A stretch of DNA of 64,000 bases from Candidatus Micrarchaeota archaeon (GTDB lineage Archaea; B1Sed10-29; B47-G15). Shown piece by piece: positions 3,067 to 19,065 of the stretch; position 1 is the first letter of the stretch; every line of letters starts with the position of its first letter. The notes below the pieces were generated by a model, which searched no databases, was not told where the DNA came from, and worked only from the letters and a program-made list of their open reading frames with translations. Where the stretch lies: the NCBI GenBank assembly GCA_003660975.1, contig QMVG01000001.1:64001-128000 (forward strand). Reading direction: 5' to 3'. A program made the position numbers and the translations under genes.

Positions 3067-3240
3067 TTTTGCAAGCTTTTTTCACAGTTATCACAGAAAA
3101 AAGCTTATTTTTGCTTAAGCTTTTTCCATAGTTTTCACAGAAAAAAGCTTAGGTCGAAGACCATGACCCCATGGCATTTATTTCGCTTAAGCCTTTAGCG
3201 TAGCGATAATAGAAAAGGCTTAAATTCCTTCGGGCCTATT
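3067..3240 (+). repeat. array of three ~42-bp palindromic units plus one hairpin, ending in a copy of the tRNA-Val 3' end
   Basis: Units at ~3067-3106, 3108-3150 and 3181-3221 (AAGCYTTT...AGAAAARGCTT). AAATTCCTTCGGGCCTATT (3222-3240) matches 3049-3067 with 2 mismatches. Confidence 0.85.
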
Positions 3241-3302
3241 GTCTGTTTTGTTGGAAAGATCAAGACATAGATTTTATATATCCACTGCTTCTAAATTAGA
3301 GC

Positions 3303-3761
3303 ATGGCAAAAGAGAACATAGTGGATGAATTAGACATAAAGATACTGAAAGAGTTGCGAAGGGATGGTAGGTTGTCATTTAGGCAGCTTGCTAATAGGTT
3401 AAATGTGGCAACAGGTACAATACAAAAAAGGATAAAGCGCATGGAGGACCTTGATATAATAAGGGGCTACCATGTTAGCATTGACTTTGAAAAGTTGGGT
3501 TACAAAATCACGGCTGTTGTGGGCGTGATAGGCAACCAGGAGAGCATCATAAAGCTGGAAGATAAGCTCAAAAAAATGAGCAACGTGATAGGGCTGTATG
3601 GTGTTACTGGAGAATACGACCTCCTTATTGCAGCTAAGTTCAAAACAATAACTGAATTAAATGACTTTATAAGGAAGCACTTTAATATTAAGGGAGTAGA
3701 CAAAACAGTAACTTTCATAGTGCTACAAACAGTCAAAGAGGAACGTGGTCTCTTTGAGTGA
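3303..3761 (+). CDS. Lrp/AsnC family transcriptional regulator
   Basis: DELDIKILKEL..DGR HTH and VTGEYDL RAM-domain motif. Confidence 0.93.
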   Translation: MAKENIVDELDIKILKELRRDGRLSFRQLANRLNVATGTIQKRIKRMEDLDIIRGYHVSIDFEKLGYKITAVVGVIGNQESIIKLEDKLKKMSNVIGLYGVTGEYDLLIAAKFKTITELNDFIRKHFNIKGVDKTVTFIVLQTVKEERGLFE

Positions 3762-3769
3762 GGGGTAAT

Positions 3770-5224
3770 ATGTTTAATTTCAGCATAGAGGATGCAAATG
3801 TTGTTATGAGGGTGTTTGGGCAGGTAATGATGTATTTTTCTCTTGCTTTTGTTTTTCCTCTGGCTGTGGCCTTGCTGTATGGAGAAGGATTGAAAGGAGT
3901 TTTTATGTATGCCCTTCCAGCTATGCTGTCTTTTTTTCTCGGCTTCTGCATTTACAAATGCATTAAAAGCAAAGTAGAGGTAAAGAGCATACATGCAATG
4001 ACTGCTATAACACTTATATGGATAGTCCTGCCTCTAATAGGTGCTCTGCCTCTCGCTTATTATGGTTTGGACTATGTAGATGCGTACTTTGAAAGCGTGT
4101 CTAGCCTAACCACTACAGGCCTAACAGTTATCAACTCGCCAGACGTTCTGCCAAAAAGCATCATATTCTGGAGAAGTTTTGAAGGTTGGATAGGAGGAGC
4201 AGGCATAGTGGTGCTCGCTCTGATAGGTATATTTCATTATGTCAGTGCAGCTCGGCTTATGGAGGCAGAGGGCAGGGAAGACAGGTTAAGACCTAGCATA
4301 CTGCATACTGTTAAGAGAATCTGGTGGATTTACGGCATATTGACAGGAATAGGTGTTATTCTTTTGCTCTCCTCCCACCTCTCTGTTTTTGATGCTGTGA
4401 ATTACTCTATGAGTGCCATAAGCACAACAGGCACACAAATGAAAAATGAGGGAATTATGGGGCTCAACAATTTAGGCATGGAAGTGGCCCTTATGGTAAT
4501 CATGGTAATGGGTGCGATGTCATTTGCGGTTCACCACAGATTCCTGAGCGGAGACATAAAAGCGTATTTCAAAGACGTTGAGGTGAAAACCTTTTTTGTT
4601 TTCGCTGTTCTAGGCATTCTACTACTTATTCCGTCATTTTCAAGCATAAGCTATTACGGAAATCAAGCCCTGAGACACGCCTCATTCTATACGATAAGTG
4701 CCCTCACAGCAGGGGGCTTTGAGTCCATGCCTAGAGGTTTGTTCAATGACTATAGCAAGTTAATACTCTCCATATTGATGTTCATAGGTGGAGCTGCTGG
4801 TTCAACTGCTGGAGGTATCAAATTAATAAGGGCATATGCCTTCCTTAAGATAATCTATTGGCGCATTAAGAGCATGACACTTCCAAGCAACGCTTATTTC
4901 CCAAAGAAAATAGCTGGTCAGGAAATTAATGAAAAGCAAATGGGTTTCATAACAACGTTTATAATATTGTATTTCATAGCTATAATAATAGGCAGCATTG
5001 TCATAATGCTGACTGTTCCAAATGCAAGTGCAATGGACGCTGTGTTTGAAGTCACCAGTGCACAAGGCAATGCAGGTATCAGCATTGGCATAACATCGGC
5101 AAACATATCCAAGATTGCTAAAATTAGCCTTTGTGCTAATATGATTGTGGGCAGGATAGAGATAATACCTTTGATGGCTGCTCTTGCATTTATACTGAAA
5201 ATCAAAGTAAGGAGGAATAGATGA
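3770..5224 (+). CDS. trkH: Trk potassium uptake membrane subunit
   Basis: Multi-TM protein with FESVSSLTTTG, GGAAGSTAGGIK, SAQGNAG and GRIEI motifs. Confidence 0.92.
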   Translation: MFNFSIEDANVVMRVFGQVMMYFSLAFVFPLAVALLYGEGLKGVFMYALPAMLSFFLGFCIYKCIKSKVEVKSIHAMTAITLIWIVLPLIGALPLAYYGLDYVDAYFESVSSLTTTGLTVINSPDVLPKSIIFWRSFEGWIGGAGIVVLALIGIFHYVSAARLMEAEGREDRLRPSILHTVKRIWWIYGILTGIGVILLLSSHLSVFDAVNYSMSAISTTGTQMKNEGIMGLNNLGMEVALMVIMVMGAMSFAVHHRFLSGDIKAYFKDVEVKTFFVFAVLGILLLIPSFSSISYYGNQALRHASFYTISALTAGGFESMPRGLFNDYSKLILSILMFIGGAAGSTAGGIKLIRAYAFLKIIYWRIKSMTLPSNAYFPKKIAGQEINEKQMGFITTFIILYFIAIIIGSIVIMLTVPNASAMDAVFEVTSAQGNAGISIGITSANISKIAKISLCANMIVGRIEIIPLMAALAFILKIKVRRNR

Positions 5225-12980: not shown

Positions 12981-14207
12981 ATGAAGATAAAAGTTATGCT
13001 TATTTCTGTGCTTCTTCTTGCATCTGCTTACGCTATAGGCATAAGCATAAGCCCTGTTGATCACACGATGCGAAATGTGTTAAAGGGCGAGAGAAGTTTT
13101 ATTGAGTATTATATAGGAAACCAAAACCCGTACAATATAACTGTTTCTGTTGAAGTAAGGGGAGAAATTGCAGATTTTTGTTATGCAAACCAAAGCCAGC
13201 TTGTGATAGCTCCAAAAGACATTGGCAAAGTGAAAATTATAATAAACCCGAGCAATGAGACTGCTTCTGGCCTATATAAAGGAGAGGTCTCTGTGGCAAT
13301 TAAAGAGATTGGAAAAGAAAAAAACAAAAGCGCTGGGAGTGGGGCCTCTATAAAGCTCGCAGCCACATCACGCCTTAACATTGAAATAACAGGTGAAGAA
13401 ATTAAAAGAATGGATTTTGCCGCAGGGATTCGCTTAAGCCAAACAGAGTTCCCATTACCTGCCTTGCTGGAATTTACAACAAAAAATACAGGCAATGTGA
13501 GGATCAAGCCATATATAATTTTAGAGGTATATAGCATAGACCCCTTTACCCTAGGTCCAGGGCGCTTGGTGAAAACATACAGTTTTGAAGCCGATATGAT
13601 AATGCCCCAGGAGGGAAAGAGAATAAGCAAAAAAATAGACATAAGCGACTTGCAGGCCAAAAACTATTCTTGCATTTTGAGGATTTATCCAGACATTATG
13701 TCATATAGGACAGGTGAAAAAGCTGCCATGGAGCTGTCGCTGTCTCTCATCATATACCCTAGGGGAACATTCAGCATCATAGGAAAGCTTAGCAATTTAG
13801 AGATAATTGCTTCTGATGTAGGCAACCCAATGAAGATAAGCGCTGATTTTGAAAATCTTGGAAAGCAAATACTGGATGCAAAACTGGTAGCAGAAATATA
13901 TTTCAACGATGTACTAAAAGCAGTTGTTGAAAGCAAAGCCCTTGAATCAAGGCCTGAAGAAAAGATCAAGCTCATTGCTTATTATACTCCTGACAAGGCA
14001 GGATTATTTAAGATAAAAGCATATGCATTGTATGGTATTAAGCAGAGCAATGTTGTTGAAAAAGAGGTTTACGTTGGCGGTAGGGAAAACATTATCTTCT
14101 ACACAGGTATTGTGCTGGCTTTGGCTGTAGTTTTTATATTTCTATATAAATTACTGGTAAAAAAAAGAGAGACAAGTAAAAAGAGCAGAAAGCCTAAAAA
14201 ACATTAA
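12981..14207 (+). CDS. membrane-anchored Ig-like protein, paralog B2
   Basis: Paralog of B1 (N.LKG, GN.NP.N..VS..VRG, ETxxGxYKG.V.V, TGEE, NTGNV..KPY, YYTP..AG). C-terminal TM and basic tail. Confidence 0.7.
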   Translation: MKIKVMLISVLLLASAYAIGISISPVDHTMRNVLKGERSFIEYYIGNQNPYNITVSVEVRGEIADFCYANQSQLVIAPKDIGKVKIIINPSNETASGLYKGEVSVAIKEIGKEKNKSAGSGASIKLAATSRLNIEITGEEIKRMDFAAGIRLSQTEFPLPALLEFTTKNTGNVRIKPYIILEVYSIDPFTLGPGRLVKTYSFEADMIMPQEGKRISKKIDISDLQAKNYSCILRIYPDIMSYRTGEKAAMELSLSLIIYPRGTFSIIGKLSNLEIIASDVGNPMKISADFENLGKQILDAKLVAEIYFNDVLKAVVESKALESRPEEKIKLIAYYTPDKAGLFKIKAYALYGIKQSNVVEKEVYVGGRENIIFYTGIVLALAVVFIFLYKLLVKKRETSKKSRKPKKH

Positions 14208-14223: not shown

Positions 14224-16203
14224 ATGTATGAAAAAATTGTTTTCATATTTCTTTTTATTACAATTGCTTTTAGCACATCTTATGCCTCTGTTTTACCTTC
14301 ATATGTAGATATCTTGGCAAAGCCATATTGTACTATAGTGCAGAACCCTTCTGTGTTATACATTAATGGAAATCCAGGTAATGCCCGTTCAGGGATAATT
14401 ACCTTCTCTTCACATGGCCCGTGCTTAAACCCTTCTGTAATAAATTTAAGCACATCCAGTCCTGGTTGGGGCCCTATAACACTTAACCAGAGCAATCTAA
14501 CAATATCTGCTGGTGAGGAAAAAAATATCTCCTACTCATTTACTGTTCCAGATGTGGGCAATTGGATAGGTTATATCTATGGTAACGAAAGCAGACCTGG
14601 GGGAAACAGGACAAACACAACCATATATGTAACATCTACTGCACCATCGCCACCGTCAGGAGGCGGTGGAGGGGGCGGAGGAGCTGCTGCTCCCTCAAAA
14701 CCAAAGTATGCAGTAAAGATAGTCTCGATAATTCCTTCAACAGTCACTGTAAATTCAGGCGAAGCCTTCCAAACAGTTGTAAGTGTTGAGAACATTGGGA
14801 AGAAAAACTTAAGCTCACTCATTTTTAACATTCAAAACCTTCCATATGGTTGGGAAGGAGATAGCATAAATGTTGGAGACCTTGCTGTTGGTGAAAAAAA
14901 AGACTTTAAGGTTTATATAAGAAGTTATCCCACAGCAAAAGGAAACTATACGCTATTGTTCTATGTTGGTAATGATGAAGCAGAGGATACAGATGAAATG
15001 CACGTTATTGTCAAGGAAAGTAAAGTTCCAAATGTGCAGATAGAAATAAAAACAGACAAGGAAAAATATGTTGCCAATGAAAGTATGAAAATAAACATAA
15101 CGTTCAAAAACATTGCTGCTGTTGCTGTTGAGGATGGCAATATAACAGTAAGCTTTGCTGATGAAGTGATAAGACAACTAAAACACATAACACTGAGACA
15201 GGACGGGCAACTGTTTTTACCCATCACACACAAAGCAGGAGAGAGCGGTAGGAAGGAAATAAAAGCATGCATAGCGGATGAGACGAGCGGTTACAAAAGC
15301 TGTGCATTGAAAAGCATTGAAATTTTGGAAAATCCAATGCCAGTGATTTCCAAGCATGCATTGAAGGAGATAAACGGGACTGTGAGCAAGGTCATTGTAA
15401 CAATAACAATAAGTAATAAATGGAAAGCATTTAGAAATATCTCTGTTGTGGACAACATTCCGAAATCTCTGGCACATTCTGCTGATGAGATTCATTTCAT
15501 AACGACTTACAATAGCATAATAAATCCAGACCCCACTGTCCTGTGGCTTATAGATTCTTTGGAACCTTGGCAAACAGCAGTCATAGGTTATGAAATAAAA
15601 AGACCCACTGAAGAAATATTGGGGATAGAAAGCCTTCCTGCGGTGAATGTCTCTCTTTTTGACCCTGTTGAGGGCAGGAAAGTTTTCACAAATGCCACTG
15701 CGATAATATCTGTAGAGTATACTGGCATAGTCACTGTTTGCTATCCGAACAGGGACTTGCCATTGCTGATAATGAGCGTGATAATCCTACTAATACTATT
15801 GGGCTTGAAGGTTTTCAAGTTCCACACCTATTATGAATTAATAATTCCAATTCCATTATTTGTTTCAATTCTGCTTATTCTTATGAACACCTGTATGTTC
15901 TGGGCTTTCCTAATCGTATTGGTCGCGTCAGTTATATTCTTGGTCTACCAGATAATCCTCAAGTATGTAATGCACAAGGAAAAACCAGACGAAATTATAA
16001 GGAAATACAATGAATACATGGAAGCTGTTGGAAAACTGGAGAGATTAAGGAGAGAATATGAAGAGCAGATTCAAAGCGCGATAGAAGCTGTTAAGAAGGC
16101 CAAACAAAAGCAGATAGATGAAACGAGGATTAAAGCACTGCTGGAAAGTTCTGGCTTTACAAAGGACGAGATAGAAAGAATTTTAAGTGAAGCAAATAAA
16201 TAA
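14224..16203 (+). CDS. large cell-surface protein: signal peptide, Pro/Gly linker, CARDB/Ig-like domains, ~3 TM helices, cytoplasmic helical tail
   Basis: SPPSGGGGGGGG linker, VENIGK and ITFKN motifs, hydrophobic stretch near the C-terminus, IKALLESSGFTKDEIERIL tail. Confidence 0.75.
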   Translation: MYEKIVFIFLFITIAFSTSYASVLPSYVDILAKPYCTIVQNPSVLYINGNPGNARSGIITFSSHGPCLNPSVINLSTSSPGWGPITLNQSNLTISAGEEKNISYSFTVPDVGNWIGYIYGNESRPGGNRTNTTIYVTSTAPSPPSGGGGGGGGAAAPSKPKYAVKIVSIIPSTVTVNSGEAFQTVVSVENIGKKNLSSLIFNIQNLPYGWEGDSINVGDLAVGEKKDFKVYIRSYPTAKGNYTLLFYVGNDEAEDTDEMHVIVKESKVPNVQIEIKTDKEKYVANESMKINITFKNIAAVAVEDGNITVSFADEVIRQLKHITLRQDGQLFLPITHKAGESGRKEIKACIADETSGYKSCALKSIEILENPMPVISKHALKEINGTVSKVIVTITISNKWKAFRNISVVDNIPKSLAHSADEIHFITTYNSIINPDPTVLWLIDSLEPWQTAVIGYEIKRPTEEILGIESLPAVNVSLFDPVEGRKVFTNATAIISVEYTGIVTVCYPNRDLPLLIMSVIILLILLGLKVFKFHTYYELIIPIPLFVSILLILMNTCMFWAFLIVLVASVIFLVYQIILKYVMHKEKPDEIIRKYNEYMEAVGKLERLRREYEEQIQSAIEAVKKAKQKQIDETRIKALLESSGFTKDEIERILSEANK

Positions 16204-16232
16204 AAAGTTAAAAACAGAAAAGAATAGGACAT

Positions 16233-16304
16233 GCCTCAGTAGCACAGCGGTAGTGCGGCCGCCTTGTAAGCGGCAGGTCGAGGGTTCGAATCCCTCCTGA
16301 GGCT
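16233..16304 (+). tRNA. tRNA-Thr(TGT)
   Basis: Acceptor GCCTCAG/CTGAGGC, anticodon arm GCCGC-CT-TGT-AA-GCGGC. Confidence 0.95.
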
Positions 16305-16401
16305 TTTATGGCCGGAGGCCATAACTTTGAGGCTTCAGTTTCGCTTAAGCATTTACCATAGGCAATAACAGAAAAGGCTTAAATCTCTCCTGAGGCTTTT
16401 A
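16304..16401 (+). repeat. hairpin repeat plus 42-bp palindromic unit plus copy of the tRNA-Thr 3' end
   Basis: TTTTATGGCCGGAGGCCATAAC (16304-16325). Unit 16339-16380 is homologous to 3181-3221. AATCTCTCCTGAGGCTTTTA (16382-16401) matches 16289-16308 with 1 mismatch. Confidence 0.88.
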
Positions 16402-16538
16402 ACTATATCTATAAAGCCCCAAACCATAAATGGGCCTTTCAGCAGAGGTTCTGAGCTCTGATTGGACAAAACATGACTACAAAGCCAACAACCAAAAGGC
16501 TTTTAAATTACAATCTTTTTTAATATATGCATAGTATC

Positions 16539-16597
16539 CCCGTGTTTGCCTGGGGCAACCCGGGCAACCACGGGCTGTTTGGTGATTGGTATCAAAC
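16539..16597 (+). promoter_or_regulatory. structured 5' leader of the NYN gene (two hairpins)
   Basis: CCCGTG-T-TTGCC-TGGG-[GCAA]-CCCG-GGCAA-C-CACGGG. Then GTTTGGTG-[ATTGG]-TATCAAAC, which covers the SD and the ATC. Confidence 0.7.
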
Positions 16598-17235
16598 CAT
16601 CCGCAATCCTGTTGATAGACTCTTCTAATTTTTATCATTCACTCAAAGAACAGAATGACCTCCCTTTTGATGCAGAACAGTTTGCTTTGTTAGTTAAAGA
16701 GCTAAATAAAAAATTTGATCTAAAAAAAATTAATTTTTATGATGCTATGAAAAACCGTGCTAAGGACCCAATAGGTTACTCAAAACAACAACGCTTCCAT
16801 AGCCGTTTGAGGAAAGCAATTCCGAATATCGAGATAAAACACTTAAAACTGAGGTATGTTAGAAGCATAAGTAAAGAAGAGGCATTCAAAATCTCTAAAG
16901 AAATTGGGATTCCATCAAATCTCAAAGACAAGCTTTATTTATTCCTAAAGAAGCTTGGGGTAGTAAAACTTACTAGAGAAAAAGGTTTAGATGTTTTAAT
17001 AGTTATAGATGCTTTGGAAGCGCACAGAAGTGGAAAATATGACAATATAATCCTCTTATCTGGGGATTCTGACTTTGTTCCAGCAGTCAAATTCATGCAA
17101 AATGATGGAGCCAAAGTCATCAATTTACATGCTTATTCCGGTAGCTCGAATGAATTAAGGGAGACTTGCTCTAGTCACATACTCATAGACATTGACGCTA
17201 ATGGGAGTGTCAACCTGAAAAGCTACAAGACATAA
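16591..17235 (+). CDS. NYN domain (LabA/DUF88, PIN-fold) ribonuclease; start uncertain (ATC 16591 or GTG 16582)
   Basis: LIDSSNFYH, FYDA, REKGLDVLIVID and LLSGDSDFVPAV motifs. Confidence 0.9.
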   Translation: MKPSAILLIDSSNFYHSLKEQNDLPFDAEQFALLVKELNKKFDLKKINFYDAMKNRAKDPIGYSKQQRFHSRLRKAIPNIEIKHLKLRYVRSISKEEAFKISKEIGIPSNLKDKLYLFLKKLGVVKLTREKGLDVLIVIDALEAHRSGKYDNIILLSGDSDFVPAVKFMQNDGAKVINLHAYSGSSNELRETCSSHILIDIDANGSVNLKSYKT

Positions 17236-17299
17236 TTTTTTTAGTGAAAAAGTAAGAACCTTAAACATTGTACGCTTCATTTCCTAAAAACTATATATG

Positions 17300-17321
17300 T
17301 TTTATGGCCGAAGGCCATAAC
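17300..17321. repeat. second copy of the 22-bp hairpin repeat
   Basis: TTTTATGGCCGAAGGCCATAAC. Differs from 16304-16325 only in the loop. Confidence 0.9.
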
Positions 17322-17325
17322 CTGA

Positions 17326-19065
17326 TTACTCATCAGCCAGTGTTGACAAGTCGCCTGTTGGAAGACCGAGTTCTTTTGCTTTCAACACGCGCCTCATTAT
17401 TTTTCCTGACCTGGTCTTGGGCAGCTTGTCTATAAATTCTATTTCCTTTGGTGCTGCATGTGCTGCCATGTGGGTCTTAACAAATGCCATAAGTTCTTTT
17501 TTCAGCTCTTCGCTTGCCTCATAGCCCTTGTTTAAAACAACGAAAGCCTTTATTATTTCTCCTTTTATTGGGTCTGGCTTTCCTATAACACCTGCCTCGG
17601 CTACAGCAGGGTGCTCTATCAAGGCACTCTCAACCTCAAAAGGACCTACTCGCTCCCCAGCAGTATTTATGATATCATCAACCCTGCCCTGAAACCAAAA
17701 GTAGCCTTCTTCATCCATATACGCACTATCTCCAGAAACATACCAATCAGCTATGAAGTAGTTCTTAAAACGCTCTTCGTTGTTCCATATGGTTTTCATC
17801 ATACTTGGCCAACCTCTTTTCAAGGCCAGGTTTCCTATTGTTAAAGGGGGCAATTCATTTCCGCTGTCATCTATTATAGCTGCTTTTATCCCTGGGAATG
17901 GCTTTCCCATAGAGCCTGGCTTTATAGGCATTGATGGGTAATTGCAAATCATTTGTGAACCTGTTTCAGTCATCCACCACGTGTCGTGAATGGGCAATCC
18001 CCAGACCTTCATGGCCCACCTTATCACTTCTGGATTCAGAGGTTCTCCAACAGAATATATCAAACGCAGAGAGGAGAAATCATACTTAGCAACCTTTTCA
18101 TCTCCTGCGGCCATCAGCAACCTAAAGGCTGTTGGGGCGCTGTACCACACGGTTACTTTATATTTCTCTATTGTGCTATACCATGCATCAACGTTGAATC
18201 TTCCTCCACGTATGACAGAGCTAATTCCATTGAGCCATGGGCCATACATACCATAGGAAGTTCCTGTAACCCAGCCTGGGTCAGCAGTGCACCAGTAAAT
18301 ATCTTCATCATGTAAGTCCAAAACCCACTTTGCAGTTATGTAATGAGAAATCATCGCTCTCTGTGCATGTAAGACTCCTTTCGGTTTTCCAGTTGAACCA
18401 GAGGTATAATGCAAAATGAGAGGGTCTTCAAGATCAAGCCAAACAATGTTAAAATCATCAGGTGCATCTTCCATCTCTGCTTTATAGTTAATCTCATTGT
18501 CTTCTATCTCCTCTTCATCACCCACCATAAAAACATATCTCAAGTCAGGTAACTTTTCCCTGGGAATCCTCTTTCTCATTTTTGGGATGCTGATTATTGC
18601 AATTGCTCCTGCGTCGAGCATCCTGTCCTTCACTGCCTCCTCCATAAAAGCTTCAAAAAGAGGCATTGGTATTGCTCCTATCTTATGGATTCCCATAAAA
18701 GCAACATAGAGCTCGGGGCTGCGAGGCATAAAAACAGCAACCCTATCTCCCTTTTTTATTCCATACTTTTTCAACACATTTGCAAACTTGTTCGATAGGA
18801 GGGATAAATCTCTGAAGCTGTATGACTCTTCTCTCTTATCTGAAGTGTAGTAAAGGGCTATTTTGCTGCCATCCTTATTTGCGTGCTTGTCTATTGCTTC
18901 ATAAGCCATATTTACTTTTCCTGTCTTATACCATGAGAAATCTTTTTTAATTTCTTCCCAATCAAAGTCTTTATACGCTCTCTCATAGTCCTCCATATGT
19001 GGTTTCAGTCTAAGCATTTCCTCTGTCTTGAATATCTTCTCAACCTCGTGAGCAGCTTTTTCCAT
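17326..19065 (-). CDS. acsA: acetate--CoA ligase (AMP-forming acetyl-CoA synthetase)
   Basis: YTSGSTGKPKG, WCTADPGW, DTWWMTETG and PKTRSGKIMRR motifs. SD GGTGA before ATG 19065. Confidence 0.93.
   Translation of the reverse strand: MEKAAHEVEKIFKTEEMLRLKPHMEDYERAYKDFDWEEIKKDFSWYKTGKVNMAYEAIDKHANKDGSKIALYYTSDKREESYSFRDLSLLSNKFANVLKKYGIKKGDRVAVFMPRSPELYVAFMGIHKIGAIPMPLFEAFMEEAVKDRMLDAGAIAIISIPKMRKRIPREKLPDLRYVFMVGDEEEIEDNEINYKAEMEDAPDDFNIVWLDLEDPLILHYTSGSTGKPKGVLHAQRAMISHYITAKWVLDLHDEDIYWCTADPGWVTGTSYGMYGPWLNGISSVIRGGRFNVDAWYSTIEKYKVTVWYSAPTAFRLLMAAGDEKVAKYDFSSLRLIYSVGEPLNPEVIRWAMKVWGLPIHDTWWMTETGSQMICNYPSMPIKPGSMGKPFPGIKAAIIDDSGNELPPLTIGNLALKRGWPSMMKTIWNNEERFKNYFIADWYVSGDSAYMDEEGYFWFQGRVDDIINTAGERVGPFEVESALIEHPAVAEAGVIGKPDPIKGEIIKAFVVLNKGYEASEELKKELMAFVKTHMAAHAAPKEIEFIDKLPKTRSGKIMRRVLKAKELGLPTGDLSTLADE

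Follow-up and report, generated by a model that had tools for sequence, protein, structure and literature searches.

Several ribonuclease (RNase) genes are autoregulated through stem-loops in their own messenger RNA (mRNA), such as the leaders of Escherichia coli rnc, rne, and pnp and the stem-loop in the 3′ untranslated region of the Regnase-1 mRNA, which encodes a NYN/PIN-like RNase. Foreign DNA bracketed by repeats of the 3′ ends of stable-RNA genes is known from integrative elements that target transfer RNA (tRNA) genes and from integrase-less, att-flanked islets (CIMEs). In type III toxin-antitoxin systems (toxIN, cptIN, and tenpIN; PMC8860590, PMC5086642, PMC3401426), as presented in the parts of these publications on which we draw, an RNA lies upstream of, and is co-transcribed with, an endoribonuclease gene. 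Here, we describe a comparable layout in a 64,000-nucleotide (nt) stretch of the genome of a Candidatus Micrarchaeota archaeon (GenBank assembly GCA_003660975.1, contig QMVG01000001.1, positions 64,001 to 128,000 of the forward strand; hereafter the window, with positions counted from its first letter), where a hairpin-forming leader precedes a gene for a NYN-domain nuclease. A first-pass annotation of these letters had proposed an RNA-controlled toxin with a structured leader and a sequestered non-AUG start. The NYN leader hairpin is a conserved, covarying structure of the sense-strand RNA, and the protein encoded downstream is, in the explanation that we favour, its putative partner.

The hairpin at the window's locus (16539–16574, forward strand) has exactly the span and composition first described for it, with 15 pairs, among them a G-U pair (16551/16562), and a GCAA loop, and it is interrupted by a U-C mismatch (16545/16568). 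It is made up of a 6-base-pair helix P1, a 1×1 mismatch, a helix P2 formed by UUGC and GCAA, and a variable apical stem-loop, and the covariance model of the leader (R1) scores it at 58 bits (E = 4.3e-9). For the 141-nt leader, the predicted folding energy is −39.5 kcal/mol (z = −3.4), a value equalled by none of 200 shuffles. Among the covariance models of Rfam 15, tRNAs alone reached their gathering score in the window, and permissive filters applied to 16300–16660 gave no match on the hairpin. It is neither a genome-wide repeat nor a terminator that recurs, as it is single in the window and its second occurrence in the window's own archaeal genome (G000; 1.33 Mb, 43% G+C, 89.7% complete) is a spacer in an array of clustered regularly interspaced short palindromic repeats (CRISPR).

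Orthologues of the NYN protein that are 39–70% identical were found by protein searches, and an alignment query then drew the corresponding DNA from genome and metagenome collections; relatives of the gene carry the label Micrarchaeota. Comparison of upstream regions showed the leader hairpin in all 46 distinct regions, the window included, from Micrarchaeota, Iainarchaeota, and their kin (43 found by script, two of these wrongly delimited, and three evident by eye), placed 9–27 nt ahead of the start codon. The consensus runs from a YATTGCWTC box through CCCGNG, a mismatched base, UUGC, a variable stem-loop that is often just UUCG, GCAA, a second mismatched base, and CNCGGG to CU. The GCAA tetraloop of the window's hairpin, which had been singled out as a GNRA loop, is thus real and not a conserved feature, since the loops vary and UUCG is the commonest among the orthologue leaders.

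In a structure alignment of 44 of the 46 regions (loci L038 and L049 were left out, their hairpins being identical to those of L115 and L050), 97.5% of the cells in ten core pairs are paired. Compensatory changes occur in six of the ten pairs, one of which appears with five pair types, and the covariation score was matched by none of 500 shuffles; when the partners are slid by 1–3 columns, pairing drops to 17–47% of cells. The internal mismatch position is non-Watson-Crick in 44 of 44 sequences (G-A in 21, U-C in 15, others in 8), and the apical stem is hypervariable. Of the 44 sequences, 42 are more stable as the sense than as the antisense strand, two are tied, and none is less stable; G-U pairs number 54 on the sense strand against 5 on the antisense. 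This asymmetry of fold and of G-U pairs identifies an RNA structure and rules out a DNA palindrome or operator.

The leader is also tied to its gene. Across 31 genomes of the class, matches of R1 were confined to the four genomes that bear an orthologue (four of the 18 genomes of the order), each directly upstream of the gene, and to the one CRISPR spacer; the 27 other genomes of the class yielded nothing at E ≤ 0.01. Upstream of a second NYN clade, 29–33% identical, R1 found ten loci at E ≤ 0.05, a count in which L131 and L128 apparently duplicate L062 and L058, respectively. A blind rule that called for a CCY...RGG hairpin closed by six pairs and lying at most 110 nt upstream was satisfied by 40 of 44 close loci, 23 of 34 distant loci, and 24 of 356 control windows, the distant set spanning Pacearchaeota, Nanoarchaeota, Woesearchaeota, Bathyarchaeota, some bacteria, and one viral contig. 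No conserved element was visible by eye downstream of the NYN stop codon.

At several distant homologues, bacterial and viral ones included, the leader appears by eye to hold two hairpins (L054, L056, L063, L067, L068, L129, L130, L180, L181, and L192). The first resembles the archaeal motif; the second, with a GC-rich stem and a T-run behind it, has the look of an intrinsic terminator. At the archaeal loci, a T-run after the hairpin occurs inconsistently, at some loci only.

The open reading frame (ORF) behind the leader (16591–17235, forward strand, counted from the ATC codon) encodes a NYN protein, as first noted: its score for PF01936 (LabA-like), 64 bits (E = 2.9e-17), exceeds the curated cut-off of 24.2. 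RNase activity is known from NYN proteins. The structure model (pLDDT 92) has a PIN-like fold, for which the best match is 2qip (VPA0982 of Vibrio parahaemolyticus, LabA-like and without an assigned function; E = 1.2e-8, target TM 0.78), and the NYN domain of MARF1 (6fdl) is matched with probability 1.00. The archaeal protein differs from both in an insert of about 50 residues (roughly 83–133), modelled as a β-hairpin and two helices. In the protein alignment (A1), residues D54, D137, D162, and D164 are invariant, and each of the 17 rows that extend as far as the ID.SN motif has its first Asp (D12 in P0001); these conserved acidic residues are presumably catalytic and metal-binding. By alignment, model, and fold matches, the nuclease fold and its acidic residues are intact. 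Of the PADLOC candidates, HEC-09 (2.9e-9) and NYN (4.3e-8) match the protein. A role as a protein-only substitute for RNase P was rejected, as an RNase P RNA of archaeal type (162 bits) is present in G000.

The conserved sequence of the leader, its obligatory mismatch, and its strict linkage to one gene together point to a putative specific protein-binding site, for which the NYN protein itself would be the most economical partner. The explanation that we favour takes the unit at about 16326–17299 as a candidate self-contained, single-gene cassette composed of a promoter with a transcription factor B recognition element and TATA box (BRE/TATA), a 5′-terminal hairpin, the sequence GGTGAT, and the NYN gene. 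The hairpin would be a specific RNA ligand of the protein encoded downstream, which would bind or cut the 5′ end of its own mRNA so that nuclease synthesis or activity is held down, by autoregulation or in an antidote-like manner. The cassette would relocate or be acquired horizontally, as suggested by insertion scars beside tRNA and 5S ribosomal RNA (rRNA) genes and within an operon, and by a CRISPR spacer that resembles a leader variant; in the window's clade a near-cognate start at AUC 16591 might add a second brake. This proposal, of a nuclease that binds or cuts its own 5′ hairpin in an autoregulatory or antidote-like way and is carried by a relocating or horizontally acquired unit, is drawn from sequence comparison, and we hold it with slightly better than even confidence. 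Our literature searches, including those for NYN together with type III toxin-antitoxin systems, returned no description of the leader or of the cassette; the one related entry was HEC-09, a NYN gene put forward as a defence candidate.

The placement of the hairpin within the transcript follows from the promoter. A purine-rich stretch followed by TTTTAAAT forms an archaeal BRE/TATA promoter (16496–16508, forward strand), in which the TATA-like element lies at 16501–16508, 30 nt ahead of the hairpin, in agreement with the first-pass annotation; at 34 of 39 loci, a purine-preceded TATA-like word begins 35–39 nt ahead of the hairpin's first pair. Archaeal transcription starts at a usual distance from the TATA box, and this distance together with the TATA position would put the start at about 16532–16534 (forward strand), at the invariant G of the ATTG/ATAG box (G16534, column G8 of alignment A2, conserved in 44 of 44). 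The mRNA would then probably have some 5 nt ahead of the hairpin.

Downstream of the hairpin lies a Shine-Dalgarno (SD)-like GGTGAT (16581–16586, forward strand), which matches the anti-SD sequence, the 3′ end of the G000 16S rRNA reading GATCACCTCC. The G000 16S rRNA gene itself is split over two contig ends (C5:73100–73914 and C3:116603–117234) at model position 829/830, which represents either an assembly break or an insertion. Gene callers begin the NYN ORF at TTG 16546, within the hairpin, and no in-frame ATG precedes the first Asp, as had been observed before. The candidate start codons, from in-frame codons and the orthologue alignment, are TTG 16579, GTG 16582, and ATC 16591 (16579–16593, forward strand). 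The earlier choice of ATC 16591 is reasonable in that the codon stands at the SD distance customary in this organism and corresponds in the alignment to the ATG that most orthologues have; it had overlooked the in-frame TTG and GTG. At other genes in the window, the spacing from GGTG to the start is 5–8 nt, with GGTG(A) commonly about 5 nt before it; ATC 16591 stands 6 nt after GGTG and 4 nt after GGTGAT. In the orthologues, GTGAT or GTGTT often stands 3–4 nt ahead of ATG, and an ATG lies within one codon of the aligned ATC position in 33 of 46 loci.

The ATC is retained in the four closest loci for which DNA is available (the window, L023, L006, and L022), of which L023 offers an in-frame GTG and L006 an in-frame ATG just after the hairpin as alternatives. 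In L022, L125, and L115/L038, a canonical in-frame start after the hairpin is missing, and the reading frame includes the conserved UUG of the hairpin. Over 15600–18100, the ATC included, the window is identical to contigs of runs X1 and X2, which may be the source of this DNA. A translation start at the near-cognate AUC 16591 in the window's clade is plausible on these alignments, with GUG 16582 as an alternative.

The surroundings of the gene differ from lineage to lineage. A Pfam search of 133 neighbouring ORFs at 28 loci found no neighbour in common; the flanks hold, among others, topoisomerase VI, ribosomal proteins, RadA, ProRS, AbiEii, PIN/ParE, Fic, an IS200 TnpA, and an integrase fragment, and in L040 the NYN gene sits between the E1-β and E2 genes of a 2-oxoacid dehydrogenase cluster. 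In the window, a tRNA-Thr(TGT) gene (16233–16304, forward strand; called by ARAGORN, Rfam tRNA 73.6 bits) lies directly upstream of the cassette. The left copy of a 22-nt direct repeat (16304–16325), a small palindrome, starts at the 3′ end of this tRNA, and the right copy (17300–17321) lies just past the end of a converging acetyl-CoA synthetase gene. The copies are identical at 21 of 22 positions and are the only two, both in the window and in the 1.33-Mb genome.

We compared 30 loci with at least 300 nt on each side with 1000 random G000 positions. Flanking direct repeats of at least 15 matched nt were present at 11 of the 30 loci against 43 of the controls (4.3%), an enrichment of about 8-fold, and repeats of at least 20 matched nt at 6 of the 30 against 25; the loci are not all independent, as L118 and L121 have one repeat in common. 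These repeats duplicate host sequence: the right-hand copies in L023 and L121 overlap a 5S rRNA gene at its annotated 3′ end, two copies of the 16-nt word of L121 bracket NYN in L118, where an intact 5S gene follows 2 kb further on, and the right copy of an 83-nt repeat in L034 (3204–3286) overlaps the start of an Nre-family ORF at 3238. An opposite-strand tRNA lies 28 nt past the NYN stop codon in L022, and a tRNA-Thr(TGT) about 1 kb upstream of NYN in L025 and L035. The promoter-hairpin-NYN unit occupies another chromosomal site in each lineage and thus appears to be a self-contained combination of RNA and nuclease that relocates. A usual insertion sequence or transposon was rejected because the unit lacks a transposase or recombinase inside its repeats, these vary in length (15–83 nt) and distance, and there are no near-identical multiple copies. 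That the NYN gene behaves like a selfish or accessory unit is supported.

Further observations concern the sites themselves. A degenerate 3′ half of a second tRNA-Thr (T-arm and acceptor; 16355–16401, forward strand), recognised by repeat search and alignment, follows 93 nt after the first. This recurrence of the tRNA-Thr(TGT) 3′ end exactly 93 nt downstream is seen both in the window (16289–16308/16382–16401) and in L035 (1372–1391/1465–1484), and the window's copy reaches through the T-arm, which makes it the decayed member of a tRNA tandem or else a half copy of att type. In runs X1 and X2, a contig of a second organism (about 52 kb and about 50 kb, respectively, at a depth of about 55) agrees with the window's tRNA 3′ end and about 90 nt beyond it, save for 15 differences, within 16279–16390. 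It diverges at 16390, so that the tRNA-proximal segment is common to both and the following sequence is not. In L118, a Fic-domain gene (3276–4514) separates the NYN unit from the intact 5S rRNA gene, which could reflect serial insertions at one site. L115 and L038 are near-identical over NYN and about 15 nt past its stop codon and then diverge completely, which may mark a further insertion hot spot; the sequence after the divergence in L038 resembles an opposite-strand tRNA T-arm by eye, without a call by ARAGORN. Upstream of the window's tRNA, a 659-amino-acid ORF (14224–16203) with an eight-glycine run, C-terminal transmembrane-like stretches, and weak CARDB similarity resembles, together with the ORF at 12981–14207, a surface-protein pair.

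The CRISPR match in G000 is the only one that R1 gave apart from the chromosomal leader. It is spacer 10 (G000:C4:59954–59993; 36 bits, E = 1.8e-4) of an array at C4:59238–60336 (L183) that comprises 15 repeats and 14 spacers, preceded by the C-terminal part of a zinc-finger ORF and followed by a cas1-like ORF. The spacer has the clade-specific CATAGTAT box (18 of 20 positions identical to 16530–16549) and keeps the U-C mismatch and UUGC/GCAA. Its apical part is much shorter than that of the chromosomal leader, and the spacer therefore does not match the chromosome's own leader. This resemblance is a hint that a related leader may have arrived on foreign DNA. Compared with the genome and the collected loci, the other 13 spacers gave chance-level words only.

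Several observations weigh against our explanation. Flanking repeats of at least 15 nt are missing from 19 of the 30 loci, and the cassette ends at no fixed distance from the gene, the left repeat and the hairpin being separated by anything from about 68 to about 500 nt. Inside the repeats, NYN is the sole gene and no recombinase or integrase was found, the integrase fragment of L036 lying outside the unit. G000 has one NYN orthologue and one leader, and the gene is otherwise single copy per genome as well (one metagenome-assembled genome has two divergent copies, L027 and L046); a single copy and identities of 39–70% also fit an old, vertically inherited gene in fast-rearranging genomes. A search for an empty site by way of the acetyl-CoA synthetase gene found none among 17 other genomes of the order, two of which have the gene and in which synteny is not comparable. 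Viral contigs held no close NYN homologue, the best being 33% identical with a different leader, and R1 matched none of the 13 best viral loci. No protospacer of spacer 10 was found in G000, the collected NYN loci, or the viral contigs, and the spacer could derive from the chromosome of a related strain. Finally, TTG 16579 and GTG 16582 in the window are in-frame canonical starts, so that an AUC start is not required. A still broader proposal, that promoter, hairpin, and NYN make up a mobile or selfish element of archaea and bacteria that has no recombinase, inserts by stable-RNA genes and in operons with variable duplication of host sequence, is recognised by CRISPR, and uses the hairpin to keep its nuclease harmless, is tentative and in our view doubtful.

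Among the alternatives, the one that survives best, itself rather unlikely, is a type III-like addiction module, in which the leader RNA, alone or within the mRNA, neutralises a toxic NYN RNase and the pair is the last survivor of decayed integrated elements, its loss killing the cell. Binding between RNA and protein is an idea that it has in common with our explanation. The tight coupling of nuclease and RNA speaks for it, as do the patchy, non-syntenic occurrence beside AbiEii (L104), PIN/ParE (L123), Fic (L118), an IS200 TnpA (L105), and an integrase fragment (L036), the att-like duplications by tRNA and 5S genes, and the similarity to the PADLOC candidates HEC-09 and NYN; in the distant bacterial leaders, the first hairpin followed by a terminator-like one before the gene also resembles, by eye, an RNA-terminator-toxin layout. 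However, the locus lacks a tandem repeat array (the only feature given by TRF is one of 2.4 copies of 9 nt in the hairpin arm), and the toxin would have a NYN rather than a ToxN-like fold, so that the locus fails the tests that define type III. The T-run after the hairpin is inconsistent in archaeal loci, and HEC-09 gave no phage defence in the one published test, as far as the consulted part of that report goes (bioRxiv 10.1101/2024.01.29.577857). Of the RNA-controlled toxin first proposed for this locus, what is supported is a structured RNA linked specifically to the NYN gene, which covaries, is confined to the sense strand, and co-occurs with the gene; what is not supported is membership of type III.

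A distinctly unlikely alternative is that the gene encodes an ordinary RNA-processing nuclease of the chromosome, with a 5′ hairpin that only makes the mRNA more stable or adjusts its translation, the NYN protein playing no part in this; the repeats and the spacer would then be incidental. Stem-loops at the 5′ end are known mRNA stabilisers, the gene is single copy per genome with its closest relatives within the same order, and the loci without clear flanking repeats (19 of 30) would be unsurprising for such a gene. A mere stabiliser, however, needs no invariant UUGC/GCAA, no constant mismatch, and no conservation into bacterial homologues, and the restriction of the gene to 4 of the order's 18 genomes, the roughly 8-fold enrichment of flanking repeats, and the spacer match also argue against it.

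Less probable still would be a hairpin that serves mobility, as a recognition or guide RNA for NYN by analogy with the omega RNA of IS200/IS605 TnpB or the bridge RNA of IS110. RNA and nuclease do travel together with no further gene in the unit, the apical stem is hypervariable, and the insertions adjoin structured RNA genes or palindromes; yet the variable part is self-paired and thus not free to guide, the apical sequence showed no match by eye to the flanking repeats, the unit is single copy per genome, and NYN proteins are known RNases. The second hairpin that had been drawn at 16577–16597, which would silence translation by pairing the SD with the AUC until opened, is scarcely credible as a switch, since its 9-base-pair helix (−5.4 kcal/mol) has a z of −1.0 with 27 of 200 shuffles as good, RNAalifold finds no conserved pairs in six relatives, and the spacer between hairpin and start varies in length (9–27 nt) and in sequence.

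Returning to a nuclease that acts on its own leader, a hairpin that is the NYN ligand would, if this holds, be the first specific prokaryotic RNA partner for the large and functionally blank LabA-like PF01936 family, in a system simple enough to study. The NYN leader is in any case a widespread cis-RNA motif absent from Rfam, and the possible AUC start offers a testable case of near-cognate initiation in archaea. If the cassette does relocate without a recombinase of its own, this would be an unrecognised route by which small genes pass through reduced genomes of DPANN archaea and of the candidate phyla radiation (CPR), and the CRISPR spacer would be the first sign that hosts treat the cassette as an invader.

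With the stable-RNA-targeting integrative elements and CIMEs, the cassette has in common the duplication of the 3′ end of a stable-RNA gene, seen with tRNA-Thr in the window, with 5S rRNA in L023 and L121, and as the same word in L118. It differs in that its cargo is one gene of about 0.65 kb, in that its repeats of 15–83 nt also copy the ends of protein genes, and in that no integrase lies inside them. With HEC-09 and the 'NYN' entry of PADLOC, it shares a stand-alone NYN nuclease in variable regions, going by the part of the source consulted (bioRxiv 10.1101/2024.01.29.577857). The HEC-09 hidden Markov model covers residues 131–203 of the archaeal protein, its C-terminal half only; HEC-09 has an extra N-terminal helix-turn-helix-like domain and gave no defence against the phages tested, and that report, in the portion consulted, mentions no leader RNA.

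Type III systems resemble the cassette further in being selfish, patchy, and defence-linked units, according to those sections of the publications cited above on which we draw. Their antitoxin consists of tandem repeats of about 36 nt, whereas the NYN leader is a single hairpin in 46 of 46 loci, and their toxins are of the ToxN/AbiQ/CptN/TenpN kind, in contrast to the NYN fold and archaeal host found here. In such systems, the ratio of RNA to toxin is set by a terminator placed between their genes; at the NYN loci, T-runs behind the hairpin are confined to some of the archaeal leaders, and a second, terminator-like hairpin is seen by eye in several distant bacterial ones.

A further likeness is with rnc, rne, and pnp and with Regnase-1, where, as at this locus, a nuclease gene has a conserved structured hairpin in its own mRNA near the translation start. 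Regnase-1 moreover sets a precedent for an NYN-type RNase that recognises a stem-loop. Unlike these cases, the NYN leader probably lies at the extreme 5′ end of an archaeal mRNA, has a sequence signature of its own, reaches distant bacterial homologues, and travels with its gene as a cassette.

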